Assembly: GCA_021791495.1 (NCBI GenBank)
Contig: JAJYWN010000016.1
Coordinates: 38,970-102,969 of the forward strand
Length of the DNA: 64,000 bases
Direction: 5' to 3'
Source: Bacillota bacterium
GTDB lineage: Bacteria > Bacillota > Sulfobacillia > JAJYWN01
Below are positions 10,738 through 30,776 of this stretch, piece by piece. The translations under genes and the position numbers were made by a program. How positions within the stretch are numbered: the first letter of the stretch is position 1; the number at the start of each line of letters is the position of its first letter. The notes under the pieces were generated by a model. It did not search any database. It saw only the letters and a program-made list of their open reading frames with translations, and had not been told where the DNA came from.

Positions 10738-11150
10738 TAAACGGACCTCCTTCCACTTCTAGGGAACCTCAATCTCCGTCACGACAACTCAGTCACGACA
10801 ACGCCAAAGTCCTGGGAGCAACAGGAAAATAAGGAATGTCCTCTCGCTGGTTTTCCTAGAATCACCTCTTTTCCTTTGGTCACTAGAGGAATTAGAGGCA
10901 AAAAGCAGGCCTTTTGGCTATCTTTTGTTATCATACCACATTTTGCATCATTATCACTAGAGAAGAGCCACTTGGGACTAATGTCACAGTACCCCTCCCA
11001 CTAGGCCGTCCGTGGCAAAGAAGACCAGTTAAAGGTGGCAAGCCGGCGCCGGACTAGATTCAGGCAGGATGCGGGGCCGGAGAGGTGGAAGCAATCCACC
11101 GTCATGTCGACCGCATAACGGTAGCTGGAAATAGGAGAGGGGGACGGCAG

Positions 11151-13298: not shown

Positions 13299-13511
13299 CT
13301 AGGCCCACTGGTGTTGGAGAGCCGTTTGAGTCATGACCGAACGCCCCGGCTCCGCGGATTTTGGAACAGCAAACCATTGCAACAACGAACGACCGTTTTC
13401 TCCAATTCCTGCAGTATTTGGGTTACAGTTAGTTATGGGTTATGGTATGGTTAGGGTGCACCGTTATACTTCTTATTTACAGAACCTGTTTGGAGGACTC
13501 TGGAAGTCGCC

Positions 13512-15272
13512 ATGGCATTGACTGGTGGGCGCTACGCCGACAAGAAAGCCATCGACGTCCTACTGACCACGGAGGGCACGTATCCGGTGGCCCGTGGCGG
13601 CGTGGGCACTTGGTGCGACACGCTGATTCGAGGCGTACCCGGCGTGAATTACAGCGTCTACGTGGTCATGGCCCATCCCTACCTACCGGACCGTTATAAG
13701 ATTCCGAGCGGCGTCTCTGTGTTGCGTGTCCCGATGTGGGGCACGGAGGAGCCTACCGAACACCTGGACGTGCCGTTCTCGGAGATCTACGAACGGAAAC
13801 TGCGCACCACCCCGTCCGTGCTGACGGCGGATTTCCTGCCGATGGTCGACAGTTTCATGACCGACCTCTGGAACCCGGACCCAGATGGACACAGACTGGG
13901 TCAAACGATGTTCAGCATGTATCGCTGGTTCAAGATTCACGACTACATGGAGGCCATGAAGTCCCGTGAGGTCTGGGACTTCTTCATCCGGGGCCTACGC
14001 GAAGAGCGCTGGAACAAATTCCCGTCCCCGCCCACTTTGACCGATTGCGTCCAGTCCATGGGCTGGCTCTACCGCTTCTTCGTCGTTCTCACTACGCCCG
14101 TACCCCTTGCCGACGTGACCCATAGCTCGGCGGCGGCCTTCTCCGGGCTACCGGGAGTCCTGGCGAAACTGGACCGGAAGACACCGTACCTTCTGTCCGA
14201 GCACGGAGTGTACCTGCGCGAGCAGTACCTGTCCGTGGGAAAGTCGAAGATGACTGCCTACGCCAAGCAGTTTTTGATTGGACTGGTGCGCGGCACGGTC
14301 ACGGCCAACTACGCCCACGCCGACGTGGTGGCGCCCGTCGCCGCCTTCAACGCCAGGTGGGAGAGACGGTTCGGCGTGCCGGAGGACAAGATCCGCGTCA
14401 TCTATAATGGCGTCGATCCCAACGCCTTCAAGCCACGGCCGCGTCCCGAGAACACGGTGCCGACCGTCGTCACGCTGGCGCGCATCGACCCGCTGAAAGA
14501 CATCCTGACGCTGATCCGGTCAGCCGCCTACGTCCGCGAAAGGATGCCCGAGGCCAAGTTCGTGGTCTACGGCGGGGTTAGCGTACCCAGCTACTATCGG
14601 GAATGCCTCGAACTCCGCGACCAGTTGGGTCTACAGGAGAGCTTCATTTTCGCCGGGCATGTGGACGATGCACCGTCCGCCTACGCCAGCGGGGACCTGG
14701 TAGTTTTGTCAAGTGTCAGTGAGGGCTTCCCCTACACCGTGGTTGAGGCGATGATGTCCGGCCGCGCCGTGGTGGCCACGGACGTGGGCGGCACCAGGGA
14801 GGCCTGCGCGGGGGCCGGCCTCTTGGTTGAGCCCGGCAATCACGCGGAGATGGGCGAAGCAATCCTCCGTCTGCTCCATGATCCAGCCCTACGCGCGTCG
14901 CTGGCCGCGGAAGCCCGCGAAAGAGCGCTGGCTTACTTCACGATTCAGCAGAATCTGAACCTATATAGAAAAGCTTATGAGGATCTGGCGCAGCCAGAGG
15001 AAGTTTCGGTCGATGTGTCGAAATTTATCGGTCGCCGCCGCATGCTTGCGTTGGTGCGTGCCAGGGCCTTGCAGGCCATCGGCCGAAACGCGGAGGCCAT
15101 TCGGGAATACCGCGTCGCGGTCGACTTGGCACCTACGGACGCTACGGCGCCGGCGCTCCTTCTAACCATAGCCGAGCTTTATCTATCGCGCGGGGAAATT
15201 CAGCGCTCATGGCAAGAGATGGAAAGAGCGGAAGCGCTTGCGGCGGCGATTCGCCAACGGAGGGCAGGCTGA
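13512..15272 (+). CDS. pelF: PelF-like GT4 glycosyltransferase (DUF3492) with C-terminal TPR-like extension
   Basis: LLTTEGTYPVARGGVGTWCD, LSEHGVYLRE, IYNGVD, RIDPLKDILTL, SEGFPYTVVEAM; GGAGG RBS. Confidence 0.88.
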   Translation: MALTGGRYADKKAIDVLLTTEGTYPVARGGVGTWCDTLIRGVPGVNYSVYVVMAHPYLPDRYKIPSGVSVLRVPMWGTEEPTEHLDVPFSEIYERKLRTTPSVLTADFLPMVDSFMTDLWNPDPDGHRLGQTMFSMYRWFKIHDYMEAMKSREVWDFFIRGLREERWNKFPSPPTLTDCVQSMGWLYRFFVVLTTPVPLADVTHSSAAAFSGLPGVLAKLDRKTPYLLSEHGVYLREQYLSVGKSKMTAYAKQFLIGLVRGTVTANYAHADVVAPVAAFNARWERRFGVPEDKIRVIYNGVDPNAFKPRPRPENTVPTVVTLARIDPLKDILTLIRSAAYVRERMPEAKFVVYGGVSVPSYYRECLELRDQLGLQESFIFAGHVDDAPSAYASGDLVVLSSVSEGFPYTVVEAMMSGRAVVATDVGGTREACAGAGLLVEPGNHAEMGEAILRLLHDPALRASLAAEARERALAYFTIQQNLNLYRKAYEDLAQPEEVSVDVSKFIGRRRMLALVRARALQAIGRNAEAIREYRVAVDLAPTDATAPALLLTIAELYLSRGEIQRSWQEMERAEALAAAIRQRRAG

Positions 15273-15297: not shown

Positions 15298-15834
15298 GTG
15301 AGCGGTACGACATCCTTACGGCGGCGCATGATGGGGTACTCCCCTGCCGCCGTGGCCGAAGCGTTGCGGCAAGGCCAGGAACGCCATAACCAGGAGATGG
15401 AGCGTCTCCGGCAGGAGCTCGAGAAGTTGCGGGAGAAATCGGCGGCCCTGTCCAGGCAGATTTCGGCGGCCGAGGCCAAAGCCCAGAGCACCGACGTCCT
15501 GGTCCACACTTTGACCGCCCGTATCCTGGAATGGGTTAATCAGCGGGCCGGTGCCGTTAAGGCCCTTGCTGAGCGTGATACCCGGGCCGAGAGTGAACTG
15601 CGGTCCGAATTGGAGAGGCTGCACGCCGTGCTGACGCACCTTCAGGAATCTCAGTCCAGGTTTGGCAATGAACTCAGCAGTCTGATGCGGCGCTTCCGCG
15701 ATGAGGTCGTGTCCTTGCGGGTCGGACTTCCGTCATCCTCGCCGGCGAACAGCGCGTTGTCTGAAGTGGCGGCCGGGCCACGGACCCAGATGCCTTCTCT
15801 TCCAGGGGAACGGAAGGAGTCCGCTATCAGATGA
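15298..15834 (+). CDS. DivIVA-like coiled-coil protein
   Basis: N-terminal RRRMMGYSPAAV resembles the DivIVA F-x4-GY-x3-V head, followed by a heptad coiled coil; GTG start. Confidence 0.6.
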   Translation: MSGTTSLRRRMMGYSPAAVAEALRQGQERHNQEMERLRQELEKLREKSAALSRQISAAEAKAQSTDVLVHTLTARILEWVNQRAGAVKALAERDTRAESELRSELERLHAVLTHLQESQSRFGNELSSLMRRFRDEVVSLRVGLPSSSPANSALSEVAAGPRTQMPSLPGERKESAIR

Positions 15835-17285: not shown

Positions 17286-18880
17286 GCCGTGCCCCGAGGG
17301 TGGCTGATTCCGGAGATTCCGTAGACTTCCAGAGCCTCCGGCGTCAGATCTCCGAAAGCGGTTCCCACCCGCTCGACGTATCGCATGTCGCCGCCATGCT
17401 GGAGCTAAGCGGGATCACCGACCGCCGGGCGGTGTCCCTGGGGTACGATGACGTCTTCGACCTGGCACAGGCCCTCTATGAGTCGCTCTCGACGGACATG
17501 CGTTGGGAGACGGTCTTGGCCGATGACGGAGATCCCTGGTACAAGAGGTTCTTCCAGACTATCCGTCTTTACCTGCGCGGCCTCTCTTTCGCCGCGCCCA
17601 TGATTCTGTCGTCCGCTTCGGTCCTGGCGCTGCGTTTCTCCCTATGGTCCTACGTGGATTTCAGCACGGAAATCGCCACGGCCATCGCCCTGGCCACCTT
17701 CGGCAGCTTCCTGGTGACCGGCGGATTCACCCAGGCCATCGCCCGCCGTGGGCTGTTCTACATCACCCAGGAACAGTGGCGCCTGGCCCGCATATCCACG
17801 GCCCGCCTGCTACTGATGGGAGTATATGCCATCGTCCTGACGGTGCTGCTCGTCATCATCTTTGTGGCAATCATCCCCATCTTGCCTTGGCCGATCGTGG
17901 GCTACACCTTCTTGTACTTCCTCCCCATGTCCTTCATCTGGCTGGGGACGGGGCTTCTCTATATGCTCGACTGGGAGCCGGTCATCCTCGTGCTCATCAG
18001 TTTCGGCATCGGGATGGTGTATTACTTCTTCGATATCCGCAAGGTTCCGATGATGTACGCGCAGGCCATCAGCATGTGGATCATCGCCGTCATTTCCTTC
18101 CTCCTGGCCTTCGTCCTCTTCCGGCGCCTGGAAAGGCGGAATCCCAAGGAGATGGAGCAGTCGCACCGGATGCGCTGGTCACAGGCCACCCGGTCGCTCA
18201 TGCCCTTCTTCATCTACGGCGTCGCCTATTTCGCTCTGAACTTCGCCGATCGGGTCATGGCCTGGTCGCGCCCCGAGGAGTTTCACCCCTACTTCATCTG
18301 GTTTCGCGGCGACTACGAGCTCGGCCTAGACTGGGCGCTGTGGTGTCTGTTCGTGCCTATGGGAATAGTCGAGATTTACATCGTCGGGATGTTCCGCCGG
18401 ATCCAACGCCTCGGAAAGCACGTGAATGTGGCCAACATCCCCGCCTTCAATCGTGGCTTTCAGTTGTACCACCTGCGGACCATGATCCTCGTTCTCGTAT
18501 CCGGGTTCGCCAGCATCCCCGGCCTGGTCTGGCTGGCGAAATGGCTTTTCCAACTGGGGTTGCTGTACTTCGACCCGATGGACAACCCCATCACCCGTTT
18601 CGTATTCCTGGTCGGATCGCCGTCTTTCAGCATCATCGCCGCCGGGCTGCAGGGGTCTCTGGTGCTCTTCAGTTTGAACGAACCTTGGGTCGCCACTCGG
18701 GCGGCCGGCTCGGCGTTGCTCCTGAACATCATCGTGGGGTTCCTGGCCAGCCGCTATGTAGCCTACTGGTGGGCCGTGTGGGGGTTGGCTGTGGGAAGCC
18801 TGGTCTTCACCGGCCTCATCACGGTCCAGGCGATGCGGGTCCTTGGCCGGTTGGATTTCCACCTGATGCGGGGCGCCTAG
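17282..18880 (+). CDS. pelG: PelG-like polysaccharide transporter/membrane protein
   Basis: About 12 TM; FADRVMAWS and YELGLDWAL resemble PelG motifs; N-terminal VAAMLELSGITD...YDDVFDLA; downstream of pelF. Confidence 0.7.
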   Translation: MSRAPRVADSGDSVDFQSLRRQISESGSHPLDVSHVAAMLELSGITDRRAVSLGYDDVFDLAQALYESLSTDMRWETVLADDGDPWYKRFFQTIRLYLRGLSFAAPMILSSASVLALRFSLWSYVDFSTEIATAIALATFGSFLVTGGFTQAIARRGLFYITQEQWRLARISTARLLLMGVYAIVLTVLLVIIFVAIIPILPWPIVGYTFLYFLPMSFIWLGTGLLYMLDWEPVILVLISFGIGMVYYFFDIRKVPMMYAQAISMWIIAVISFLLAFVLFRRLERRNPKEMEQSHRMRWSQATRSLMPFFIYGVAYFALNFADRVMAWSRPEEFHPYFIWFRGDYELGLDWALWCLFVPMGIVEIYIVGMFRRIQRLGKHVNVANIPAFNRGFQLYHLRTMILVLVSGFASIPGLVWLAKWLFQLGLLYFDPMDNPITRFVFLVGSPSFSIIAAGLQGSLVLFSLNEPWVATRAAGSALLLNIIVGFLASRYVAYWWAVWGLAVGSLVFTGLITVQAMRVLGRLDFHLMRGA

Positions 18881-18908: not shown

Positions 18909-20891
18909 TTGGCAGACATTCGTCCCTGGCCGTGGGTAGCAGCCATAGCGCTTCTTCGGGTGGCACTGGCCATTGGCGTCATCTATGTCTTGCTGCCCTG
19001 GGTCATGTTCCCGCGCCTGGACGAGCCCGAAGACAACCCCCTAGTCTCACGGGCAATCTGGATATCCTTCTTTAGCGCGGTGGTCGTGCATGTCCTGGCG
19101 GGGTTGCGCATTTTCGAGGCCCCCGTCTTCATCGTGATCTGCCTGCTCATGGCCTTGAAGAACCGGCTCTACGCCGTCTCGGTGGAAGGGCGCACCCAGC
19201 TCCGCGTGCGGGCCCTCAGTTGGCTTTTCGATCGGGTAGACGGCAAGCCGCTCGCTCGGCGCGACCATCCTTTCGGCCTGAGGGCTCTGGCCAACCTCCG
19301 CCTGTGGCCGTCGCTGTCGTGGACTATCCTCGCCCTCGAATTCGGGGCCGTGGCCTACATCCTCTTCGCCAAAGCTTTCACCACGCCCGTTCCGCCCCTG
19401 TCCGACGCGCCGGTGAACCTCGCGTGGATGAAGTACGTCGAGAACAACGTCCTATACCACAATGAGGTCTACCCGCGGGGGATGTACACCGCGCTGTCCC
19501 TGCTGCGCAAGTTCACGTGGCTGTTGTCTTTCGTCCTCCTCGACATGGCCGGCCCCCTGATCAGCCTGGCCTCCGTGGCGTCACTAGCCTTCTTCATTCG
19601 GAAGACGACCGATTCCTGGGGCGCCGTGGTGGTTACGGTCGCCTTGTATGGCTTATTCCCGACCTTCCTTCCGGCCGACCTGGGTCGCCGGGGTGCCCCA
19701 AACTCCGAGGAGTTCGGCTTCATTTTCATCCTTCTGGCCGCCTGGTTCTTATGGTCCTTCCTAATACAGGGGCGCAGGGGTGACCGGACCACGGCCGCCG
19801 CCGCCGCGGGCATGGCGGCTTTCACTCACCCGGTTTCCGCGCTCTTTACCATTGCTATGATGGCGGGCGTGACCCTTTCGTCCATCATCTACCGCTGGAA
19901 TCAGGCTTGGCGGCGGCTGCCCGGGGCCGTCCTCTGGGCCGGCGGGGCCGGGGTCATCGCGGCCCTCCCGCCTTTCACGGCCATCCTCTTCGGCGAGACC
20001 TGGCATTCCTCGTCGCTGCAGTATCTCACTACCACTACGGGCGCTCTCTCCGAGATGAACCCGCTCCATGTGGGAGCGCTGGCCCTCTCCGGCGGGTTGG
20101 CCCTCATCCTGCCGATCGTCGCTTGGCGCCTGGGGCAGAAGACCGCGGGTCTGGGCGCCGCCGCCGCCGTGGCCGCCGTTGGCTTGGTGGTATACCTGGC
20201 GCCCAACTTCGGCCTGAACAGCGGGGTACTGCTCGACCGTGGCGGTGAGATCGGGGCCATCGGCCTCGCCGTGCTGGCCGGGCTGCTGTGGGCGCTGGTG
20301 GAGCGCTCCCTGGGACGGTTTCGTCAGGCGGGGGTGCTGGCTGCGGTACTGGCCGTGGGGCTGACTTTCTCCAAGGTCCCGACATCCGGTCCGCAACCCT
20401 ACTACTACTACTCCCGGGAGATGATCGAGACCTATATGCGCGGCGCCTTGACCTATGAGCCCGGCACCTGGACCCTTGTCGCCGGTTTCCGGGGGTACTC
20501 CCTGGCTCTGGGCCGGGCCATTCACAACTACCCGAACGATTTCCTCCTGATGGCCTCGCAGATGCCGGTCGACCTAGCCCAGTGGTATGATGCCCCCTGG
20601 AAGCTCGCCAACGGGCAGACGACCAAGGAGAAAACCCCGAACTTCGTCCTCGTGGTCGAGAAAGTCTCTCCGGTCGCGCCCGGAACAAACGACCGGGCCC
20701 GCGAGGAGGCAACCTTGGCCGACGCGGCCAAATTGGAGGCGTGGATACAGGAGAACCGGGGGAAACTGCCGCTCCAACCGATCTTGTCCGATGAGAACGT
20801 TGACGTCTGGACGTTGACGATTCCGGTACCCAAGAAGCCTGGCGATATCTTTAATCCCAGGCCGGCGCCCAGCGGCCCCATCGGGAGGTAG
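18909..20891 (+). CDS. Polytopic membrane protein, GT-C-like (paralog A)
   Basis: Many TM segments; loop SDAPVNLAWMKY...VYPRG; NSEEFG; soluble C-terminal domain; homologous to 27787-29820. Confidence 0.7.
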   Translation: MADIRPWPWVAAIALLRVALAIGVIYVLLPWVMFPRLDEPEDNPLVSRAIWISFFSAVVVHVLAGLRIFEAPVFIVICLLMALKNRLYAVSVEGRTQLRVRALSWLFDRVDGKPLARRDHPFGLRALANLRLWPSLSWTILALEFGAVAYILFAKAFTTPVPPLSDAPVNLAWMKYVENNVLYHNEVYPRGMYTALSLLRKFTWLLSFVLLDMAGPLISLASVASLAFFIRKTTDSWGAVVVTVALYGLFPTFLPADLGRRGAPNSEEFGFIFILLAAWFLWSFLIQGRRGDRTTAAAAAGMAAFTHPVSALFTIAMMAGVTLSSIIYRWNQAWRRLPGAVLWAGGAGVIAALPPFTAILFGETWHSSSLQYLTTTTGALSEMNPLHVGALALSGGLALILPIVAWRLGQKTAGLGAAAAVAAVGLVVYLAPNFGLNSGVLLDRGGEIGAIGLAVLAGLLWALVERSLGRFRQAGVLAAVLAVGLTFSKVPTSGPQPYYYYSREMIETYMRGALTYEPGTWTLVAGFRGYSLALGRAIHNYPNDFLLMASQMPVDLAQWYDAPWKLANGQTTKEKTPNFVLVVEKVSPVAPGTNDRAREEATLADAAKLEAWIQENRGKLPLQPILSDENVDVWTLTIPVPKKPGDIFNPRPAPSGPIGR

Positions 20892-20898
20892 AGCCGAC

Positions 20899-21717
20899 GT
20901 GAAGGCCAAGCCGAAAGCGATCGTGGTCATCCCCGAGTACAACGAAGAAAAGACCATCACCAACGTCCTGGAGAGGACCTATCCCTACGCCGACCTGGTT
21001 GTCGTCGTGAACGATGGCTCCACGGATACGTCCGGCCACCTGGTGCGGAAATGGGCCGCCGCCCATCCTGGAGTGGTCCTCCTTACTCTGGCTCGCAACC
21101 AGGGCATGTCCGGCGCCCTGCTCATGGGGTTCACTTTCGTTCTCCAACTGCTGGACCGCGGCTTCGTCGATCCCGAAGACGTGGTGGTCAACATCGACGC
21201 AGATGGTCAGCACTTGCCGGAGGAGATTCCCGTGGCCCTGGAGGCGATGAAGGCGGGTGGTAGCGACGTCCTCCTCGGGAAACGTGACCTCCGTGGTTAT
21301 CCTTGGTTCAAGCACATCGGCAACTGGGGCCTCTCCCTGTGGGCCACGCTGCTCTCTGGCTATCATTACCAGGACGTGGAGTGCGGCTTCCGCCTGATGC
21401 GGGTGGAGGTGCTGGCCGACATGCTGTCGTATTTCGCCGGCCGTCGGTACGGCTGCGCTCAGGAGATCGGGGTGATCACGGCTCGACGCGGGTGGAGAAT
21501 CGATAACCGTTTCCAGACCAATATCGCCTACTACCGGGCAGGGGCGCGGATCAGGGACGGGATCACGAACTTGCGCATGGGCTTCATGGCCTTCCTTCGC
21601 GTGGCGCTGAACCGCCGGACGCCGCTGGACGTCCGGTACGCCATGATCTCTGGACTGGTGGTGGAAGACACTCTTCAGGAGAGGGTGACGTTCAGGCCAT
21701 GGGCCGCGTCCTCCTGA
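20899..21717 (+). CDS. GT2 glycosyltransferase, polyprenol-phosphate sugar synthase-like
   Basis: VIPEYNEE, VNDGSTD, DADGQH, DVECGFR. Confidence 0.88.
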   Translation: MKAKPKAIVVIPEYNEEKTITNVLERTYPYADLVVVVNDGSTDTSGHLVRKWAAAHPGVVLLTLARNQGMSGALLMGFTFVLQLLDRGFVDPEDVVVNIDADGQHLPEEIPVALEAMKAGGSDVLLGKRDLRGYPWFKHIGNWGLSLWATLLSGYHYQDVECGFRLMRVEVLADMLSYFAGRRYGCAQEIGVITARRGWRIDNRFQTNIAYYRAGARIRDGITNLRMGFMAFLRVALNRRTPLDVRYAMISGLVVEDTLQERVTFRPWAASS

Positions 21718-22862
21718 CCGACGGCCAGCAGCGCAAGACTCTGACCGCCGTCCGGTCCCTGGGGCGACGCGGGGACAGCGTCTGGGTGGCCGACGTCACG
21801 CTCTTCTCGACCAGTCGCTTCTCCCGTTATTGCCACCGGGGCTTGGTCTGCCCGAGACCTGAGGAAGAGGGCCGGTTCTGGAACTGGGTCCTGGCAGTGG
21901 TGGACCGGTACGCGCTGGACCTTTTCATGCCCATGGATGATTTCACCACGGAGGTGGGTGTGGAGTGTCAAGGTGAACTGCCTCCGGGATGCGGTTCCCT
22001 GCTCCCCACGCCCCAGCAATACGCGGCGGCACGGGACAAGGGCGCCACCGCCCAGCTGGCGATGAAGGCTGGGGTACGGCTGCCCCGCACTTTCGAGGTG
22101 GCCGACCGCGGGGAGATGGAGGCGGCCCTGGCGGTACTGGGTGGGCCAGCCGTGATCAAGCCCAGGTATTCGTCGGGTGGACGTGGTATCTACTTCGTTC
22201 AGGACCGGGCCGAAGCCGAGCGAGCCTGGACCATGGCGGAAGGCCGGCCGGAATGGGGCGGCCTCCTGGTTCAGGAACGCATTCCTTTGGGGCGTAAGTT
22301 CGACGTCTGCCTGCTCTATGGACCGGCGGGCGATGTCCGGGCTTCCTTCGTGCAGGAGGAACTCCGGTGGTTTCCGCTGGAGTCGGGCGCTAGCACCCTT
22401 CAGGAGAGCGTCGACCGACCGGACCTGGTGGACCTGGCGGCGCGGCTTCTCTCCCCGGTGGGATGGCGCGGCCCCGTCGAGGTGGAGTTCATGCTGGACC
22501 GCACTGGCGCCCCGGTGTTGATGGAGATCAACCCGCGGTTCTGGGCATCGCTGGCGCTGGCGGTGCAATGCGGCGTGGACTTCCCGTCCTTGACGGCGGA
22601 CCTCGCCTGGGGCCGCGACGTGCGGGGACCGGCGAAGTACCCGGTCGGACGGCGGTGCCGCTGGCTTTTGCCGGGCGACTTACTGCACGCCATGGCCAGA
22701 CGAGGAAGGGGCATCACCCCCCCCTTCTTCGCCACCTACGACGGACGGACGGTCGACGACATACTGTCCTGGGAAGACCCCGGTCCGACACTGGGTGTGG
22801 TCTTGGCCATGCTGCGGTATTCGTTGGATCCGGGCATGTGGAGGATGCTGCTGCGGTGGTAA
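21699..22862 (+). CDS. ATP-grasp carboxylate-amine ligase family protein
   Basis: LTAVRSLGRRG, ARDKG, VIKPR, LVQERIP, VEVEFM, LMEINPRFWAS. Confidence 0.85.
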   Translation: MGRVLLTDGQQRKTLTAVRSLGRRGDSVWVADVTLFSTSRFSRYCHRGLVCPRPEEEGRFWNWVLAVVDRYALDLFMPMDDFTTEVGVECQGELPPGCGSLLPTPQQYAAARDKGATAQLAMKAGVRLPRTFEVADRGEMEAALAVLGGPAVIKPRYSSGGRGIYFVQDRAEAERAWTMAEGRPEWGGLLVQERIPLGRKFDVCLLYGPAGDVRASFVQEELRWFPLESGASTLQESVDRPDLVDLAARLLSPVGWRGPVEVEFMLDRTGAPVLMEINPRFWASLALAVQCGVDFPSLTADLAWGRDVRGPAKYPVGRRCRWLLPGDLLHAMARRGRGITPPFFATYDGRTVDDILSWEDPGPTLGVVLAMLRYSLDPGMWRMLLRW

Positions 22863-23755
22863 GCCATGTTCTCAGCTTCGACGTGGAAAACTGGTTCGAC
22901 GGAAACCTCCACCGCCGCTGGACTGGGAGGCTGGGAGAGACTGGCGCTGCGACTGGCGATCGTCTGCCGGCCGAAGTGGACGCCGTCCTGTCCCTGCTTT
23001 CCGAAGCCGGCGGGGTCAAAGCTACCTTCTTCGTGCTGGGCAGTGTCGCGGCGGCGCATCCCGAGGTGGTGCGCCGGCTGGCCGACGGGGGGCACGAGAT
23101 TGGCTGCCATGGCATGGAGCACGACTTGGTCAGGGAGGTGACGCCCGTCCGCTACCTCGAAGGGCTTCGCCGGGCGCGGGGGCTCTTACAGGAACTGTCC
23201 GGCCAGCCTGTGGCGGGCCATCGCGCTCCTTCTTGGTCCATCGACCGCCGCGTCCCCTGGGCGGTGGCTGCGGTCATCGATGCGGGGTTCAGTTATGACT
23301 CCAGCGTTTTCCCTGCCCGGACGCCTCTCTACGGCGAGCCGTCCTGGCCTGTGGCGCCATTCTGGCTGGCCACTTCTGCCGGGAAGCACCTCCTCGAACT
23401 GCCGCCCGCCGTCCTCCGCTTGGGGCCGCTGTCCCTGCCCTACGGCGGTGGGTTGTACTGGCGCGTGCTGCCATTCGCCTTGGTCCATCTTCTCCTGCGT
23501 CGGGCGAGTTCTCCCCGGGTGACCTATCTGCACCCCTGGGAGCTGAACCCCGAGCCGGCGGGGCCGCTTCCGGCGGGGACACCGTTTGCGGCCAGGGCTG
23601 CCCTGCACTGGGGCGTGAAGCATAGCCGCGGGCGACTGAGGCGCCTCCTGTCGGCCCTTGGATTCCAGGAGTTTCGCGCCGTGGTGGGTAGTCTTTCGGC
23701 CGACCCGCGGCTTCCCACGGTTACTCTCCGAGGTCTGGAGGATGAGGCGGCGTGA
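22856..23755 (+). CDS. CE4 polysaccharide deacetylase (DUF3473 type)
   Basis: LSFDVENWF, ATFFVLG, HEIGCHGMEH, GHRAPSWS, YDSSVFP, YLHPWEL. GTG 22856 overlaps the previous stop. Confidence 0.88.
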   Translation: MVSHVLSFDVENWFDGNLHRRWTGRLGETGAATGDRLPAEVDAVLSLLSEAGGVKATFFVLGSVAAAHPEVVRRLADGGHEIGCHGMEHDLVREVTPVRYLEGLRRARGLLQELSGQPVAGHRAPSWSIDRRVPWAVAAVIDAGFSYDSSVFPARTPLYGEPSWPVAPFWLATSAGKHLLELPPAVLRLGPLSLPYGGGLYWRVLPFALVHLLLRRASSPRVTYLHPWELNPEPAGPLPAGTPFAARAALHWGVKHSRGRLRRLLSALGFQEFRAVVGSLSADPRLPTVTLRGLEDEAA

Positions 23756-25557
23756 TCCTGTCGGAAATGCCTTGGTGGGTGTCGGCGGCAGCTGGAGCCG
23801 CTTCGATCCTTCTAGCCTGGATTATTTCGTCGCTCGTGTTCGGAGGGGCGCGACGCCGCCGCGGAGACCCGGTGGCCCCGGTGTCTCTGCCGGGTCTGGA
23901 GAACGTCCAATCGCTGGACGAAGCCAGCGCCCGCATCCTGGACCACGTGGCCACCTGGGTCAAGGGGAAGTCCTATCACGCCTACTGGCTCGACGACAAG
24001 GGCGGGGCCTGGTGGCTGCGGGCCAGCCTCACCAGACCGGAATATCCGGACGTGGCTCCGAACTACTCCGGCCTGGTCATGGACGGCAGCCGGGCCGTAC
24101 CGCTATCCTTGCCCTTCGACGCGACCTTGACCTCCTCGCGCATCCGGGGGCCCCGCGACGAGCGTTGGCTGGACCTGCCCATCGGCAAGGACCTGCTGGT
24201 AACCGTCCTCCTCGGGCCGATTGGTGCCCTATCCGTCGCCGAGATCAGGCGGCTGGACCAGTCCTGCCAGACCCTGGCGCCGCTGGCTCTGACCGTGCGC
24301 CGCTGGCGCTCCGCGATGGAGGAAGCCCAGCACTATCGCGATTTGCTGGAGTCCACCCGCGTGGCTCTTGATGTCACGCTCCATATCGATCGGGCCGTCG
24401 AACTGCTCCTGAACGTTGGAGGCCAAGCGGTGGAGGCTCTGGTTCAGGTGGCGGTGGTGGAAGGGCCCAAGGAACCCTTGATCATCTCCAATTCCAGTGA
24501 AGGCAAAGCGCTGGGCCGCCGGATCGCCGAGAACGCGGAGCCGCGCCTGATGGCGCTGCCCCCCCAGCCCGACGTGGTTCCCGGAAGCCGGATGCCCACC
24601 CTGGGCTCGCTCTACAACGGCTGTGTGCGCGTCCCGGTGATGGTTTCCGGCAAGGAACCGGTGGGCTGTTTCTTCTACTTCATGAAGCACGCGCCGGCGG
24701 TCAACGGATACCAGACCGCGGTCCTCCGGGCTCTGGGCGAGAGAGCGTCGCAATTGGTGGCCAGCCAGCGCCAGGTCCAGAATGCCTCGGCAGGGTACGC
24801 CGATACTCTGGGAATCCTAGTCAATGCCATGGACGGCCTGTCCCCGCATAGCCAGGGGCACTCTCTTCGGGTGGCCCGGTTGGCCCGAATGATCGCCGGA
24901 CAGATGAAGCTGCCGCCGGACGAGGCGCAGGCAGTGGCCCAGGGTGCCTTCTACCACGATGTCGGCATGGTAGCGGTCGATCCGCGGGTGGTCCTGAAGC
25001 CCCAGAAGCTCACGTCCGGGGAGTACCAGCAGGTGAAACGGCACGCCGAGTTGGGCGGTCAGCTAGTGAGTGCCCTACCGGCCGCTCTCCCTCTGGGGGA
25101 GATCGTGGCCGGCCACCATGAGCGGTGGGATGGCGACGGGTATCCCCGCGGTCTGCGGGGGGAGGAGATTCCTCTGGGTGCCCGGATCGTGGCGGCCGCT
25201 GATCTGTTCGAAGCCAAGACCACCGGCCGCGCCTACCGGTCTCCCGTACCTTTCCTCCAAGCCGTCCAGGACATCCGCGCCGCGGCCGGCAGCCATTTGG
25301 ACCCCCAGGTAGTCGGCGCGTTGGTAGCGGCTTTCGCGGAGGCGGCGCGGGCGGTGTCGCCAAGCCTGCCCCTGGCCGCTTGCTGGGAGATGCGGTGCAT
25401 CCCGGCGGCCGTCTGTTCGGGGTGCGTCAACCGGCAGACCGGCGCGGGGCGTTGTTGGGAGGCGGGGAGCAACCTGTGTTCCCGCCACGGCGACCGTTGC
25501 GCGGAATGCCTTGTCTACACCGAAGCGACTTCGCGTTTGGCGGCGGGACGCGCGTGA
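23752..25557 (+). CDS. TM + GAF-like + degenerate HD-GYP + C-terminal Cys/Trp-rich (two-CW-like) protein
   Basis: N-terminal TM; GHSLRVA, YHDVGM, HHERWDGDGYP, ADLFEAK; tail CWEMRC...C..C...CWE...C......C..CLVY. Confidence 0.85.
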   Translation: MILSEMPWWVSAAAGAASILLAWIISSLVFGGARRRRGDPVAPVSLPGLENVQSLDEASARILDHVATWVKGKSYHAYWLDDKGGAWWLRASLTRPEYPDVAPNYSGLVMDGSRAVPLSLPFDATLTSSRIRGPRDERWLDLPIGKDLLVTVLLGPIGALSVAEIRRLDQSCQTLAPLALTVRRWRSAMEEAQHYRDLLESTRVALDVTLHIDRAVELLLNVGGQAVEALVQVAVVEGPKEPLIISNSSEGKALGRRIAENAEPRLMALPPQPDVVPGSRMPTLGSLYNGCVRVPVMVSGKEPVGCFFYFMKHAPAVNGYQTAVLRALGERASQLVASQRQVQNASAGYADTLGILVNAMDGLSPHSQGHSLRVARLARMIAGQMKLPPDEAQAVAQGAFYHDVGMVAVDPRVVLKPQKLTSGEYQQVKRHAELGGQLVSALPAALPLGEIVAGHHERWDGDGYPRGLRGEEIPLGARIVAAADLFEAKTTGRAYRSPVPFLQAVQDIRAAAGSHLDPQVVGALVAAFAEAARAVSPSLPLAACWEMRCIPAAVCSGCVNRQTGAGRCWEAGSNLCSRHGDRCAECLVYTEATSRLAAGRA

Positions 25558-26384
25558 GCCGGCGCCTGGGCGATGTGCGGACCTTTGCCGTGTACTACGG
25601 CACCGGCGGCGAGGATGTCCTGTCCACCTATGACCTGGCCATCGTGGCCGCGCCGGGGCGAGACCGGGAGCGGATCGCCGCCATAAGGGAGAAGGGCACC
25701 TTGATCTTGGCCTACTTGAGCGTTTTGGAAGCGCCGCTGGGCGAGCCTGATGATGTCCGAAGGCCGGGAGAGGCACTCGTCCAGGAGGCTCCCGCTAATG
25801 TCCTGACCGGCCCGGGAGGACCGGTGGTCAACCGGCAATGGAGGACGTGGGTGCTGGATCCGCGGCATGAGAGAACTCGCGACCGATTCCTCGGTCAGGC
25901 CGAAGACCTGCTTGATCGGGGATATGATGGCCTCTTTCTCGACACCATGGCCGACTTGGAAGATCTGCCCGAGGCCGTGGCCGCCGGTGGGTTAACGGGG
26001 CAGGCGACCATCGTAGAGGCCGCCCGCCTGGTAGCCGAGGCCGCGGCTAGCTTCGGGTGCGCGATGGTTCAGAACCGTGGCTTTCGCCTCCTGCTGCCCC
26101 TGACCATGCCGTATCTTGATGGGTTGTGCTGGGAGTCCTTCCCGTATCGCCGGATCGGGCTCTTCCCCCGGAGGAACCGCACCATCCGCTCACTACAAGG
26201 GGCGGAGGGAGCTGCCGGACTACGCGTTCTGGCACTGAACGAATGGAGCGAGACCAAAGTCGCCCAACAGGAGGAGCGTTCGGCCTCGCGCGCGGCCCGA
26301 CGGTGCGGCTTTCCGTGGTATGGGACCCTCCACTACACTGATCTGCCCAGCCCGGCCCCGGCGGCGGGAGTGATGCCGACATGA
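25554..26384 (+). CDS. PelA-like endo-alpha-1,4-galactosaminidase (GH114/GH166-like TIM barrel)
   Basis: FAVYYG, YDLAIV, LAYLSVLE, GYDGLFLDT, VQNRGF, LCWESF; GTGA overlap start at 25554. Confidence 0.78.
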   Translation: MSRRLGDVRTFAVYYGTGGEDVLSTYDLAIVAAPGRDRERIAAIREKGTLILAYLSVLEAPLGEPDDVRRPGEALVQEAPANVLTGPGGPVVNRQWRTWVLDPRHERTRDRFLGQAEDLLDRGYDGLFLDTMADLEDLPEAVAAGGLTGQATIVEAARLVAEAAASFGCAMVQNRGFRLLLPLTMPYLDGLCWESFPYRRIGLFPRRNRTIRSLQGAEGAAGLRVLALNEWSETKVAQQEERSASRAARRCGFPWYGTLHYTDLPSPAPAAGVMPT

Positions 26385-27715
26385 TCTTCAGTCGAAATCT
26401 TCTCTTGGCGGCCGTGTCTTTCTTCCTGTGGTCCGCCTCGTACAACCTCATAGCTCCGTTCCTCCCGCTTCTCGCCAGGGAGTTGGGCGCCACCTCGGTC
26501 CAGATGGGCTTGGTGGGAAGCATCGGAATGCTGGGAGCCGCCACCTTGGTGTTCCCCATCTCGGTCCTGTCCGACCGGGTCGGCCGGCGCCCGGCTCTGG
26601 TCCTGGGATGGGTCGCCAGCGCCGCCGGGATGTTCATCATGTGGCCGGCCCGATCCTGGGCCGGCCTGCTGCCGGGTGTCTTTTTGTCTATGGCGGCGGT
26701 GGCCGCGCTACCGACCTTGAACGCCTTGGCTCTGGAGGAGCTTCCGGCGCCCCGGCGTGCCCGTGGGTTCGCCTTGCTCTACGCCGCCGCACCCCTGGGG
26801 ACCCTCCTGGGGTCGGCGGTGTCGGGGTTCCTCGGCACGCTGGTGGGTCTGCAGGCCAGCACGGCGGTGGCCGGCGCCTGTCTCTTAGGAGCAACTCTGG
26901 TGCTGCTGCCGATCACGGAGCGCCGTCCTGCCGGAGCAGATGAAACTGCCACGGCCGGGGCGGCCGCGAGCGGCAGGCCGGGCGGGTCGACTGGACCGGG
27001 CGGACCGGGCGGACCGGGCGAACGAGGCGGGCCAGGCGGGTCCGCCGCCACCGACGGTCGCCAACCAGGCGGAATACTCCTAGCCCTGTTCAGCGTGATG
27101 TCAGCCGGGGCTCTCTTCCTCATGGGCTTGCCGGGGAGCTTCATCGTTCCCTATGTCAAGGAGGTTTCCCGGGTCAGTCTCGTGCTGGCGGGGCTGGCCG
27201 TTTCGGTCCTGTCCGGCGCCCAGCTGGCCTGGTCGCTACTGTTCTCTACATGGCCGCGGTTTTCCGGGAGAGTCCGGGTGGGGCGTGGCCGGACCGAACT
27301 CGAACTCTCGCGCGCCACACTTCAGGCGATAACTGTTTGCCTGGCCGCCAACGCGCTGTTCGGTCTGCTTCTCCCCTCAGGGTTGGCCGCCGCCGCCGTG
27401 GTCGCTCTGGTCCTTCGGGGCAGTCAGTTTGCCTTGCAGTCTCTGGGATCCGCGCTGATGGGCGATGTCGTACCTGTCGGCCCGGGTCTCAGTACCCGGT
27501 TGACCACCCTCAGCGTGGCGCTGGGAGTCGGCGCCGCTGCCGCCCCGGTGGCGGGGGGATGGCTTTACGGCATCCGGCCCGCGTTGCCCTTTTGGGTCAT
27601 GGCCGCGGCGGCCGCCGTGGGCGCGGTCCTCCTGGCAGCCGTCAACCAGTGGTTGCCGGAAGCCGGCGCCCGGGCCGAGCGCCGCTCCGGCGTGGCGGCA
27701 GGAGAGAATCCGTGA
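26381..27715 (+). CDS. MFS transporter
   Basis: Motif A (LSDRVGRRP); 12 TM with a Gly/Pro-rich central loop. Confidence 0.85.
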   Translation: MIFSRNLLLAAVSFFLWSASYNLIAPFLPLLARELGATSVQMGLVGSIGMLGAATLVFPISVLSDRVGRRPALVLGWVASAAGMFIMWPARSWAGLLPGVFLSMAAVAALPTLNALALEELPAPRRARGFALLYAAAPLGTLLGSAVSGFLGTLVGLQASTAVAGACLLGATLVLLPITERRPAGADETATAGAAASGRPGGSTGPGGPGGPGERGGPGGSAATDGRQPGGILLALFSVMSAGALFLMGLPGSFIVPYVKEVSRVSLVLAGLAVSVLSGAQLAWSLLFSTWPRFSGRVRVGRGRTELELSRATLQAITVCLAANALFGLLLPSGLAAAAVVALVLRGSQFALQSLGSALMGDVVPVGPGLSTRLTTLSVALGVGAAAAPVAGGWLYGIRPALPFWVMAAAAAVGAVLLAAVNQWLPEAGARAERRSGVAAGENP

Positions 27716-27786: not shown

Positions 27787-29820
27787 GTGAGGTCGGGCGT
27801 GCTGCGAGCGGAAGAGGCGCTTTCCATAGCCTTGCGTTTCGCCTTCTGGTTCGGCCTTTTCCCGTACATCCTTCTGTCTGGCCGGGGCCGGCCGCGCCTC
27901 GACCGCTTCATGATGGGCCTTCTGGGTTCGCTGGCGCTGGTCATTGTCGAGGGGCAGGTTCTGTCGGCGCTGGGGTTGTGGGAGCCCATATCTGTGTGGG
28001 GTACGGTCTTGGCCTTCATCCTGGCAACGATCGCCCGCCGCCTCCGGGGCGTGAACTGGGAGAGCAAGCTGCTCAAGAGCCTTGAGCGGACCGAGGAAGG
28101 CGGGGTGGAGGAACTCCGGAACCTGGTCGCCAAGGGGCGGGAGAGCGTCTCCAGCCGCCGCCAGAGAAGGCCGTCGGCGAGGCGCGGCGCGCGGGCCGAC
28201 CGGGATGTCCTCGCCTGGGTTGTCGGAGCCGTGGTGATGGCCGGCGCACTGTTCCTCTTATACAATCAGGTGATCAGACACTACTACCTGCCGGCCTCTG
28301 AGTCCTACCAGCACCTGGCGTGGGTCAAGTATCTGCAGAAGTCCCCGGCGACGGTGGGCCAACCCACACATATCTACCAAGAAGGGGTCTATCCCTACGG
28401 CTATCATGCTTTCATATCGGCTCTGAGCCTCCTGGACTTCCTCGATCCCTTCATCGTCATCAGTTTCGCCGGCCCTCTGACCGGCCTCTTGCTCCTTCTG
28501 TCCGTTGGATACGCCGCCTACCGGCTAACCGGCAGGGTGATCTCGGCCGCACTCGCGATGGGCGTTCTGGCTGCCGGTTACTTCGGCTCGGGTGTCACTG
28601 GCGCTTCACGGGCCATCAGCCCTCTCCCTCCGGAGTTCGGGGCCGTCTTCGCCCTTCCCAGCCTGGTGAGCGCATGGCTCTTCCTGAGCACCCGCAGCCG
28701 GGATCAGGCGATCCTGGCGGTCGGGGCGGCCTTTCTGACGGCTGCCGTCTCCCCTTGGGCTTTCTGTTACCTGCTGGTGGCCCTCCTTATCCTCGGCGTG
28801 GTCGCCAGCGCCGCACGCCTGGCTGCCGGGCGGACGGCCGTCCGGCTGTTTCTGGGGGCGGCGGGGGCGGGGATCGTCACCGCGGTCCCCCTTGTGGCCG
28901 CGCGCTTATACGGTATCCCCTTCCATCCCGGCCTTTCGCCATGGTCACCGGGGAAAGGGATCCTGGCCGCCGGCGGAGGGAGCACCGCGGGCGGCTGGAT
29001 CTCGGCGGGGTTTGCCCACGTCGGCCTGGGAGCGGGCGTCTTGCTCCTGGTGGCCGGAGTCATCGGCTGGCGCCGTGGAGAGAAGGCGAACTCTCCCTTG
29101 GCGGTGGGCCTGGGTACCATGATCGTCCTCTCCTTCGTCCTATCGGGAGCCTGGGAAGGGCCGCTCTTCGTGGACCCGGCGCTGGCCAGCCTGCTCTTCG
29201 CTCTTTTCGCGGCGCTGGGAGCGGGACTGGGTCTGAACTTCGTCGCCGATGTCCTGATGTTGAACGGCCGGTGGCGGACGGGGATCGCGGCGGTCCTACT
29301 GATAGGTGCAGTCTTTTATTGGAAGCCGGTCCCGGCGGTGCCGCTCGGCCAGTACGAATACGACGACGAGGCTAAGGCGTATCTGTATATTGTGCACATG
29401 GCCCGGCGGTGGGACTGGACCATCATCTCGACGCAGGCGGCCCTCCCCAAGGTCCTCGGGTACGGTTTCCACATGCAAATTCTGGAGTTTGCCCGAAGCT
29501 ATTCCTACGATCAGATCCGTGAACCTGGCTTCGAACTGGCCACGAAGGATACAGGCGACTTCTTCATCTTCATCGAGAAAGTGCCGCTGGGAACCAAGGA
29601 GACCATCGAACCGAATGCGCAGACGCCTTTCCCGGTGGGCCGGGGGCTGGGCGCCACGACCGATGGATATTACCTGGATCCCCAGGCGCGTGCGAGTATC
29701 ATGGCCAGGTCCTGGGGGTTTGTCGAGGAATACCGGAAGATTCACCCGGATCTGGTGAAAGTCATTGTGGATAACCAGACCTTCCGCGTCTACCGGATCA
29801 CGCATGCGGGGGGACCATAA
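27787..29820 (+). CDS. Polytopic membrane protein, GT-C-like (paralog B)
   Basis: SESYQHLAWVKY...VYPYG; PLPPEFG; same architecture as 18909-20891. Confidence 0.7.
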   Translation: MRSGVLRAEEALSIALRFAFWFGLFPYILLSGRGRPRLDRFMMGLLGSLALVIVEGQVLSALGLWEPISVWGTVLAFILATIARRLRGVNWESKLLKSLERTEEGGVEELRNLVAKGRESVSSRRQRRPSARRGARADRDVLAWVVGAVVMAGALFLLYNQVIRHYYLPASESYQHLAWVKYLQKSPATVGQPTHIYQEGVYPYGYHAFISALSLLDFLDPFIVISFAGPLTGLLLLLSVGYAAYRLTGRVISAALAMGVLAAGYFGSGVTGASRAISPLPPEFGAVFALPSLVSAWLFLSTRSRDQAILAVGAAFLTAAVSPWAFCYLLVALLILGVVASAARLAAGRTAVRLFLGAAGAGIVTAVPLVAARLYGIPFHPGLSPWSPGKGILAAGGGSTAGGWISAGFAHVGLGAGVLLLVAGVIGWRRGEKANSPLAVGLGTMIVLSFVLSGAWEGPLFVDPALASLLFALFAALGAGLGLNFVADVLMLNGRWRTGIAAVLLIGAVFYWKPVPAVPLGQYEYDDEAKAYLYIVHMARRWDWTIISTQAALPKVLGYGFHMQILEFARSYSYDQIREPGFELATKDTGDFFIFIEKVPLGTKETIEPNAQTPFPVGRGLGATTDGYYLDPQARASIMARSWGFVEEYRKIHPDLVKVIVDNQTFRVYRITHAGGP

Positions 29821-29837: not shown

Positions 29838-30776
29838 GTGGGGGCTGAGGCGGTTGCTAGAGTTCTGGTCACCGGGGGTGCCGGTTTCGTGGGGTCCTAC
29901 GTGGCCAGGGCGTTGCTGGGCGCGGGCCAGGAGGTGGTGATCCTGGACGACCTGTCATCCGGTTTCGCCAGTAACGTTCCGGCCGGGGCCAGACTGGTGG
30001 AAGGTGACATAAGGGACGCCGCCCACCTAGAGCGCGTGCTGGCGGGGACGCGGCCCCAAGGGGTGGTTCATTGCGCCGCACAAGTGGGCGTTAGCGCCTC
30101 GGTAGCCGACCCCATGAACGATCTGGAACGCAACATAGTAGGAACGGTGAGGCTGGTTCAGGCGGCGGCCGCGGCCGGGGTCCGGTCCTTCGTCTACTCT
30201 TCGTCGGCGGCCGTATACGGCAACCCCGAGAGCGTGCCCATCACGGAGACGCATCCCACGAAGCCCCTCAGCCCCTACGGTCTGTCGAAGTTGACAGCCG
30301 AACGGTACGTCGCTCTCCTGGGCGAGCAATACGGCCTGAAATGGGCCTGCCTCCGATACGCCAATATCTTCGGGCCCGGCCAGCGGGCGGCGGGCGACGG
30401 GGCCGTGATACCGACTTTCCTGGAAGCCTTCGCGTCCGGACGCGATCCCGTGATTCAGGGAGACGGAGAGCAGACGCGGGATTTCATCTTCGTGGAAGAC
30501 GTGGCCAAGGCCAACCTCCTGGCTCTTTCGGGTGATGCTTCCGGGGTCTTCAATGTCGGAAGCGGTCAGGCCATGAGTATCAAGGCGCTCTGGCAAGCCG
30601 CGGCGTCCCTCATGGGATGGGACCGGCCGCCCGTCTACGGACCACCGCGTCCCGGTGACATCCGCGACTCCGTCCTGTCGGTGAGCGCCGCTGCCCAGAG
30701 TCTGGGGTGGGGTTCGCAGACGAGGTTCGGCGATGGCCTGCGGGCCACGGTGGCGGCGCTGAGACAGACTCTTTGA
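29838..30776 (+). CDS. galE: UDP-glucose/UDP-GlcNAc 4-epimerase (GalE/PelX-like SDR)
   Basis: TGGAGFVG, HCAAQ, SSSAAVYG, YGLSK, LRYANIFGP, TRDFIFVEDVA. Confidence 0.88.
   Translation: MGAEAVARVLVTGGAGFVGSYVARALLGAGQEVVILDDLSSGFASNVPAGARLVEGDIRDAAHLERVLAGTRPQGVVHCAAQVGVSASVADPMNDLERNIVGTVRLVQAAAAAGVRSFVYSSSAAVYGNPESVPITETHPTKPLSPYGLSKLTAERYVALLGEQYGLKWACLRYANIFGPGQRAAGDGAVIPTFLEAFASGRDPVIQGDGEQTRDFIFVEDVAKANLLALSGDASGVFNVGSGQAMSIKALWQAAASLMGWDRPPVYGPPRPGDIRDSVLSVSAAAQSLGWGSQTRFGDGLRATVAALRQTL

Follow-up and report, generated by a model that had tools for sequence, protein, structure and literature searches.

We describe here a gene for a membrane-anchored HD-GYP protein found in a 64,000-nucleotide stretch of the genome of a Bacillota bacterium of the GTDB lineage Sulfobacillia (positions 38,970 to 102,969 of the forward strand of contig JAJYWN010000016.1, assembly GCA_021791495.1; this whole stretch is called the window below). 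The gene is part of an operon that encodes PelF- and PelG-type proteins and in which no PelD was detected. Pel is a widespread biofilm polysaccharide, and no post-translational switch of it other than PelD is known; the HD-GYP protein is a candidate for the same role in the operon described here. The gene (Table 1) is coupled to its neighbors by GTGA overlaps on both sides, as had been proposed in an initial annotation made from the sequence alone, and both overlaps are real when read in the sequence: the GTG start codon (23752-23754) overlaps the TGA (23753-23755) of the upstream gene for a CE4 deacetylase (GTGA at 23752-23755), and the TGA of the HD-GYP gene (25555-25557) overlaps the GTG start (25554-25556) of the downstream gene for a GH114-like protein (GTGA at 25554-25557). 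The gene end given in the same annotation, 25380, falls inside the open reading frame, whose true end is at 25557, and a 60-residue Cys-rich tail was lost in this way. The architecture proposed there, a transmembrane (TM) segment followed by a GAF-like region and an HD-GYP domain, is correct, with the two corrections that the GAF-like region is double and that there is an extra Cys module at the C-terminus.

The assignment of the domains is based on profile searches and on a structural model. Pfam family PF13487 (HD_5) matches residues 364-520 with an E-value of 1.1e-33 (116.8 bits at a cut-off of 27.2; the match spans positions 11-170 of the 170 in the profile), and the profile matches of the HD-GYP domain in the PDB are 5z7c, 4mcw, 4r8z and 9rbz. 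An AlphaFold2 (AF2) model made from 19 homologues, with a mean predicted local distance difference test score (pLDDT) of 83.4, has two alpha/beta domains and a long helix between them. In a Foldseek comparison of this model with the PDB, PmGH, a cyclic di-GMP (c-di-GMP) phosphodiesterase of Persephonella marina (4mcw, E=5.6e-16), came first and was followed by DvhD (9rbz), PA4781 and tandem-GAF structures (1mc0, 1ykd and 3ibj, with PDE2A and CyaB2 among them), and residues 210-521 align, by the family profile, to PmGH's GAF and HD-GYP domains at E=2.7e-41. Stalks equivalent to the helix of residues 319-361 drive dimerisation in PmGH and DvhD (PMC13090378). The RRRR sequence after the TM helix is predicted to put the remainder of the protein in the cytoplasm. 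A loop of the first GAF domain, PxYSGL (PNYSGL in the window protein, residues 103-108, positions 24058-24075), is strongly conserved, has a pLDDT below 50 in the model (residues 97-112) and may be where this domain binds a ligand or a partner.

All seven core metal ligands of the HD-GYP domain are intact in the window protein: in the alignment with PmGH, H370 corresponds to H189, H402 and D403 to H221 and D222, H431 to H250, H455 and H456 to H276 and H277, and D484 to D305. The HHERWDGDGYP loop, the conserved Ile (I473), the guanine-recognition motif R493-A-Y-R496 and Tyr464 are all kept as well. The deviations from PmGH are Met406 at K225, Glu487 at D308, Lys489 at L310 and His366 at E185, a ligand of the third metal whose position is variable in the family. 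The replacement of the Asp of the ADxFDA motif (D308) by Glu is a conservative one; this position is Glu or Asp in the clade of the window protein, and it is Leu in the sister clade. In PmGH, the K225A and D308A substitutions abolished activity; K225 forms hydrogen bonds to D183 and to the metal ligands E185 and D222; c-di-GMP is contacted by R314, K317 and Y285, and hydrophobically by L310 (PMC4159591). The motifs on which the initial annotation was based, HDVGM, HHERWDGxGYP, ADLFEAK and RAYR, are all present in the translation. Of 45 other HD-GYP domains that were read with a regular expression, 40 contain HDxGK. To call the window copy degenerate, however, is an overstatement, because the seven core metal ligands are both intact and conserved in the clade, and the conservation of an intact di-metal site makes residual, regulated or conditional hydrolysis by the window protein a real possibility. 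Ser364, which occupies the position of PmGH D183, was considered as a second catalytic loss and dropped, since the active V-cGAP3 also has Ser there; three residues upstream of this position, the family has an invariant Asp. The change of RPYR to RAYR was judged unimportant, because the functional residues are the two Arg and the Tyr and the position of the Pro is Ala, Ser or Pro within the clade.

Relatives of the window protein were gathered as a set of 19 full-length proteins with 36-64% identity and about 90 more from a search that started with a Paenibacillus orthologue, and the census of residues was made on an alignment of 105 full-length members, the family having at least 105. The loci of family members were obtained by exact-protein look-ups; a back-translated pattern scan of species genomes returned generic HD-GYP domains only, with the Cys module in 0 of 80 loci. 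The lysine of HDxGK is present in none of the 105 members, where Val (75) or Met (24) is found most often, and in the clade of the window protein the position of Met406 is Met in 18 of 19. R493, R496 and Tyr464 are conserved in all 105 members and I473 is invariant. The position of Lys489 is Lys in 95 of the 105; H431, the HHE residues and the Gly and Tyr of GYP are kept in 104-105, and Pro465 in 102. Within the clade of the window protein, the seven core metal ligands, the FEAK lysine and the two RxYR arginines are each invariant or conserved in at least 90% of the members. Judging from the alignment, Met406, FEAK and RxYR are conserved traits of the clade and not chance drift, and the change of Lys to Met is a conserved trait of the family. 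A hydrophobic N-terminal helix is found in 93 of the 105 members. Three proteins of about 1000 amino acids (P0022, P0023 and P0025), which are GGDEF proteins with two tandem HD-GYP domains, also have Met at the lysine position in the first, degenerate domain (RDVGM, SHE), while their second domain is canonical (HDIGK).

On the phylogenetic tree the family forms two clans, the HD-type (20 members, including the window protein) and the SN-type (85 members), with supports of 96 and 100 in the Shimodaira-Hasegawa-like approximate likelihood ratio test and with one change of state between them. The HD-type clan keeps the HD, H189 and D305 positions. In the SN-type clan, which comprises proteins of Paenibacillus, Cohnella, Tumebacillus, Aneurinibacillus, Fodinisporobacter and Peptococcaceae, H189 is replaced by Tyr, HD by Ser-Asn, D305 by Gln and D308 by Leu, and the replacements themselves are conserved; the His triad of the G-site, HHE, GYP, RxYR and the Cys tail are kept. 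Since both clans are without the lysine, its loss predates their split. From their active-site residues, SN-type members are evidently non-catalytic. In PmGH, unhydrolysed c-di-GMP was captured in crystals of the form that had Fe at the G-site only (PMC4159591). The SN clan has lost the ligands of the H- and M-site metals and is nevertheless conserved in the same slot of the operon, which implies selection for something besides hydrolysis. The window protein is the less derived form of the family.

Of the 105 family members, 102 carry the C-terminal module with its seven Cys and one His. When a profile of the module was run against 1.84 billion representatives, 96 proteins were found at E<=1e-10, and in ten of the ten atypical matches that were scanned, the module stands directly behind an HD-GYP domain. 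When the module-bearing representatives were read with a regular expression, HDxGK was absent from all of them, and some showed the intermediate dyads HN, CN, SD and SH. To judge from these matches, the module is essentially confined to the place behind lysine-less HD-GYP domains. Scanned by itself against Pfam and NCBIfam, it gave no match up to E=10; its metal content could be two Zn sites or an Fe-S cluster. Folded alone, the module reaches a pLDDT of 56, and the same segment reaches 74-88 in the full-length AF2 model, so that the module probably packs on the HD-GYP domain and requires it to fold.

Independent evidence on the partners of the HD-GYP protein is provided by gene fusions. In three representatives (P0396, P0427 and P0436; 790-888 amino acids), a TM segment, two GAF domains, an SN-type HD-GYP domain and the Cys module are followed by a GH114 domain in the same polypeptide, with no TM segment between the Cys module and GH114; P0396 is the 855-residue product of positions 10001-12568 of the related locus L092. 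In three other representatives (P0439, P0442 and P0447), a GAF domain, an HD-GYP domain and the Cys module are followed by a STAS domain, and there is no TM anchor. By the Rosetta-stone argument, the GH114 fusions are evidence for joint action of the HD-GYP protein and the GH114-like protein encoded downstream of it, and the lack of an intervening TM segment implies that the GH114-like protein is cytoplasmic. The GH114-like protein is the only partner of the HD-GYP protein for which there is such independent sequence evidence, and it is the best-supported candidate for this role. In both kinds of fusion an output-type domain stands behind the HD-GYP domain and the module, which places the HD-GYP unit upstream of outputs, where a sensor would be expected. 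In the STAS fusions, the sensor unit seems to feed outputs of the partner-switching (anti-sigma antagonist) type outside Pel-like operons.

The operon of the window (Table 1) was compared with eight other loci, so that nine operons were read in total. In all nine, the family gene is accompanied by genes for PelF, two coiled-coil proteins, a PelG-like protein and a large TM protein, and genes for a CE4 deacetylase, a GH114-like protein and a transporter follow wherever the contig covers them. Five HD-type relatives have the arrangement at their loci, one of which (L085) is cut by the end of the contig and shows a partial operon, and it is seen also in Paenibacillus phyllosphaerae, Tumebacillus permanentifrigoris and a metagenome-assembled genome of Peptococcaceae. 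A minimal operon, at locus L092, contains only PelF, two small coiled-coil proteins (X1 and X2), a PelG-like protein, a 674-residue TM protein, the HD-GYP-GH114 fusion and a second paralogue of the family. Weak TPR matches are found at the C-termini of PelF homologues. The window copy of the PelG-like protein has no direct match in Pfam, and PF16933 (PelG) was found in 16 of 37 of its homologues, with a best E-value of 4.8e-11, in a sample that was enriched for such matches. The best PDB matches of the GH114-like protein are to the hydrolase domain of PelA (5tcb and 5tsy, E about 4e-4; 3.8e-4 for 5tcb). Neither the CE4 deacetylase nor the GH114-like protein of the window has a signal peptide or a TM segment by sequence and hydropathy, and from this, trimming and deacetylation of the polymer would be cytoplasmic, unlike those by the periplasmic PelA of Pseudomonas.

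Table 1. Features of the HD-GYP gene and of the surrounding operon (positions in the window; aa, amino acids).
Feature	Position	Strand	Evidence or description
HD-GYP gene, whole open reading frame	23752..25557	+	601 aa, GTG start; TM, GAF-A, GAF-B, stalk, HD-GYP, Cys module
N-terminal TM anchor, residues 8-35, then RRRR	23773..23856	+	AF2 helix; hydropathy 2.05
GAF-like domain A, residues 55-153	23914..24210	+	AF2 secondary structure; tandem-GAF Foldseek matches; conserved Y78, L89, YSGL
GAF-like domain B, residues 212-311	24385..24684	+	Family profile vs PmGH; Pfam GAF_2, weak, E=0.007; AF2 model
Stalk (S-helix-like) helix, residues 319-361 (43 residues), into HD-GYP	24706..24834	+	AF2 pLDDT 82-97
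HD-GYP domain, residues 364-533	24841..25350	+	Pfam HD_5, PDB profile matches, residue census
Met406 codon ATG, at the HDxGK lysine (PmGH K225)	24967..24969	+	Sequence
Lys489 codon AAG, at PmGH L310, family-specific lysine	25216..25218	+	PmGH alignment; Lys in 95/105 members
C-terminal 7-Cys + 1-His module, CW..CxxC..CW..CxxHGDxCxxC	25369..25551	+	Ligand columns invariant in the family
SARP/BTAD + AAA-type regulator flanking the operon	11085-13298		
PelF-type GT4 glycosyltransferase (DUF3492 + GT1), C-terminal extension	13512..15272	+	NCBIfam NF038011 PelF, 156 bits (cut-off 100)
Two coiled-coil proteins	15331-17285	+	
Divergent PelG-like polytopic protein, 532 aa	17282..18880	+	Homologues match PF16933 PelG
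660-aa membrane protein	18909-20891	+	
GT2 glycosyltransferase	20899-21717	+	
ATP-grasp enzyme	21699-22862	+	
CE4 polysaccharide deacetylase, DUF3473 type	22856..23755	+	Pfam Polysacc_deac_1 + DUF3473
PelA-hydrolase/GH114-like TIM-barrel protein	25554..26384	+	Pfam GH114, 27.5 bits; PDB matches
Major facilitator superfamily (MFS) transporter	26381-27715	+	
673-aa membrane protein	27799-29820	+	
GalE-type epimerase	29838-30776	+	

Neither PelD nor PelE was matched in the operon of the window or in the eight related loci. The initial annotation is supported in that the family gene is found together with a PelF/PelG-type operon and with no detectable PelD in nine of nine loci. The HD-GYP protein itself has no match to PF16963 or PF00990, and no homology to PelD was detected in it. 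Five operon proteins have no family assignment, two of them coiled-coil or disordered and three polytopic membrane proteins. No GAF, GGDEF or PelD-like signal was found in the other proteins of the operon, and PDB sequence searches with the unassigned ones gave no PelD-like or other informative match. A home-made hidden Markov model of the GGDEF domain had no match in the 64-kb window and is uninformative beyond it.

PmGH (4MCW/4MDZ) shares with the window protein the GAF domain, stalk and HD-GYP domain, the metal ligands, the GYP loop and guanine contacts of the R314/K317 type; compared to PmGH, the window protein has in addition a TM anchor, a second GAF domain and the module of eight Cys/His residues, and it is encoded in a polysaccharide operon. 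DvhD of Desulfovibrio vulgaris (9RBZ/9RC0) is a non-catalytic HD-GYP receptor of c-di-GMP with solved structures (PMC13090378), a membrane protein whose cytoplasmic sensor-stalk-HD-GYP part binds c-di-GMP without hydrolysis and signals by a rearrangement of the stalk. The contacts by RxYR and by the GYP tyrosine are common to DvhD and the window protein. In DvhD, however, HD is changed to SQ and HH to MN and there is no metal, whereas the window protein keeps both HD and HH, and the SN-type sister clade retains HH without HD, H189 and D305. DvhD also retains the lysine at the HDxGK position, which the family does not, has dCache and PAS domains as inputs, controls a LapG-type protease and is without a Cys module. 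HnoD, ECA3548 and RpfG of X. campestris are catalytically inactive HD-GYP proteins that act by binding or by protein contacts (Galperin and Chou, bioRxiv 2021.11.05.467447); they have lost HD and/or HHE residues and are linked to REC or PilZ domains, and none of them has the TM-GAF-GAF architecture with a Cys module or a link to a Pel-type operon. The architecture of the window protein does not appear in the survey that the same authors made of HD-GYP architectures (bioRxiv 2021.11.05.467447), and full-text literature searches yielded no paper on this family, on the Cys module or on an HD-GYP component of Pel-type operons.

PelD, as known from P. aeruginosa and B. cereus, is like the window protein membrane-tethered, contains a GAF domain, is encoded inside a PelF/PelG operon and carries a domain of the c-di-GMP metabolism type with an altered catalytic center. 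PelD is proposed to be a post-translational c-di-GMP switch of polymer synthesis, and the same is proposed here for the window protein. The initial annotation went further and saw the same overall layout in the two proteins. The match is a loose one: PelD has four TM segments, one GAF domain and a degenerate GGDEF domain with an RxxD I-site, and the window protein has one TM segment, two GAF domains, an HD-GYP pocket and the extra Cys module. The HD-GYP protein is not a member of the PelD family, and its C-terminal fold is positively HD-GYP. As to the idea of the initial annotation that a c-di-GMP receptor replaces PelD here, it is supported in part: it fits the family with respect to the invariant contacts, the absence of the lysine and the PelD-less loci, and the likeness to PelD is one of functional analogy only.

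The explanation that we favor, with modest confidence, is that the HD-GYP protein serves a Pel-related machine without PelD as its dedicated regulatory subunit, one that senses c-di-GMP with weak or no turnover of the nucleotide and is a functional analogue of PelD. The machine would consist of PelF, the divergent PelG, the CE4 deacetylase, the PelA-hydrolase-like protein and accessory genes of the lipid-carrier/GT-C type, without PelD. The cytoplasmic HD-GYP pocket would bind c-di-GMP through Tyr464, Arg493, Arg496 and probably Lys489, and since the equivalent of Lys225 is missing and turnover would be slow or absent, the signal would be the occupancy of the pocket and not hydrolysis. The dimeric stalk and the Cys module at the C-terminus could relay the occupied state to the PelA-hydrolase-like protein and/or to the PelF/PelG complex, and this relay would set the output of polymer. 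In the clade of the window protein, slow hydrolysis at the intact di-metal site, of the kind found in a trigger enzyme, or a dependence on metal or redox state may come in addition, and in the Paenibacillaceae-type clade the protein may now be a pure receptor. Such a protein would work as PelD does, being a membrane-tethered, GAF-containing c-di-GMP receptor of a synthase, on an unrelated output fold. The residue census argues that the conserved job of the family is nucleotide sensing and not hydrolysis, because the contacts to c-di-GMP are invariant, the lysine is universally gone and four-fifths of the members have their H- and M-site metal sites dismantled. DvhD is a structurally solved precedent for an HD-GYP protein of this kind, with c-di-GMP bound and not turned over.

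A number of points weigh against this explanation, and it has a main and serious rival, according to which the window protein is an ordinary active HD-GYP phosphodiesterase that sits beside the synthase as a local sink of c-di-GMP and an off-switch, with the GAF domains and the Cys module as its inputs and with no role as a receptor, Met406 being tolerated, perhaps thanks to Lys489 or to binuclear chemistry. Every core metal ligand is kept in 18 of the 20 members of the window's clade at 36-64% identity, and catalysis would be the simplest reason for keeping a di-metal site; together with HHE and GYP, these ligands are intact and strongly conserved, the HD_5 match of 1e-33 extends across the whole profile, and GAF-HD-GYP is the architecture of the active PmGH. 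The effect of the Lys-to-Met change is extrapolated by analogy from the K225A mutant of one trinuclear enzyme, and Lys489 might functionally replace the lost lysine. Some active HD-GYP proteins do deviate at positions called essential, such as V-cGAP3 with its Ser at PmGH D183, and RpfG homologues that miss a His have been reported active (bioRxiv 2021.11.05.467447). About 11% of the family members are without a TM anchor, the 64-kb window contains no diguanylate cyclase, and the binding of c-di-GMP, the contact with a partner and the direction of the regulation are steps that we infer. We nevertheless regard an active phosphodiesterase as unlikely on balance, since the lysine is found in none of the 105 members and in none of the module-bearing relatives and the corresponding alanine mutant of PmGH is dead. 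Moreover, the sister clade, whose genes occupy the same place in the operon, is conserved without its H and M metal sites, which means that hydrolysis is dispensable for the core job of the family, and the STAS and GH114 fusions place the domain upstream of outputs in a sensor-like manner.

It is also conceivable, and in our view improbable, that the HD-GYP domain does not read c-di-GMP at all and serves as a sensor of redox state, metal or a small molecule by means of a di-iron-type site, the eight-residue Cys/His module and/or the GAF pockets, or as a reader of pGpG or 3'3'-cGAMP, its fold being mainly a scaffold for contacts between proteins through the GYP loop. Such a role would agree with the Cys/His module being as conserved as the HD-GYP motifs themselves (102 of 105), with two GAF domains to which no ligands are assigned, with the lack of a GGDEF gene in the 64-kb window, with the presence of the window sequence in mine-drainage metagenome runs, a setting in which iron and redox state could plausibly act as cues, and with the examples of RpfG and HnoD, inactive HD-GYP proteins whose action depends on protein contacts (bioRxiv 2021.11.05.467447). 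It is difficult to reconcile, however, with the invariance of the GYP tyrosine, of I473 and of the guanine-specificity motif Arg-x-Tyr-Arg, given that enzymes shifted to cGAMP have RxxQ or RxxN (bioRxiv 2021.11.05.467447) and that DvhD binds c-di-GMP with exactly these residues in a metal-free state (PMC13090378). We give still less credence to the idea that PelD was not replaced and that the operon's unannotated proteins, or another part of the genome, include a cryptic PelD-like receptor, with the HD-GYP protein as an accessory modulator only. The GGDEF domain of B. cereus PelD is invisible to HMMER (Whitfield et al. 2020, PMC7112168), which counts against our explanation as well, and five operon proteins are without a family assignment, but none of them combines a TM segment, a cytoplasmic GAF domain and a C-terminal domain of about 160 residues; the minimal operon, moreover, consists of PelF, two coiled-coil proteins, the PelG-like protein, one large TM protein and two proteins of the HD-GYP family.

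The regulatory-subunit explanation can be extended to a bolder scenario, which we consider doubtful as a whole. The family may represent a third, independently evolved form of c-di-GMP control over a synthase-type polysaccharide machine, after PilZ and the I-site of PelD, and it may have been caught in the transition from enzyme to receptor. The clade of the window protein would be an iron- or redox-dependent trigger enzyme by virtue of its di-metal site and the eight-residue Cys/His module, the sister clade would be a metal-poor pure receptor, and c-di-GMP would gate a cytoplasmic, PelA-hydrolase-like polymer-processing brake and not the glycosyltransferase.

Should the regulatory-subunit explanation be true, a large group of Bacillota that have a PelF/PelG-type operon and the HD-GYP protein, and in which no PelD is detected, would regulate this operon by another molecular logic. 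It was only in 2026, with DvhD, that non-catalytic HD-GYP receptors were shown structurally; the family would add a second case, unrelated to DvhD, and would be the first to be tied to the synthesis of a polysaccharide. The family also offers a natural series, from proteins in which the lysine is lost and the metal site is kept, through intermediates, to those in which the metal site is dismantled, that makes the transition from enzyme to receptor directly testable, and it defines an unannotated Cys/His module that is seemingly found only behind HD-GYP domains without the lysine.

Several observations concern the operons at large. The PelG-like protein belongs to a divergent lineage of PelG, in which a cytoplasmic extension at the N-terminus is conserved. 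This lineage is a large and mostly unannotated Bacillota family ("hypothetical protein" in Paenibacillus, Alicyclobacillus, Aneurinibacillus and others), and only some of its members reach the PelG model of Pfam. Some operons contain two paralogues of the HD-GYP family (at 10001-11788 and 16624-18432 of locus L086 and at 10001-12568 and 12565-14394 of locus L092), their slots being after the gene for the PelG-like protein and between those for the deacetylase and the GH114 protein, which suggests hetero-dimers or a division of labor. The SARP/BTAD + AAA-type protein encoded beside the operon of the window is a possible dedicated transcriptional activator of it; in the related locus L086, the gene next to the operon (from 20524 onward) encodes a BTAD-AAA-TPR protein. 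The host is probably a high-G+C Bacillota of the spore-former type from mine drainage, to judge from the G+C content of about 64% and from the neighbors in the window and in the relatives, which include HutP, SpoVS, a Spo0B-type protein and L21-Prp-L27-Obg.

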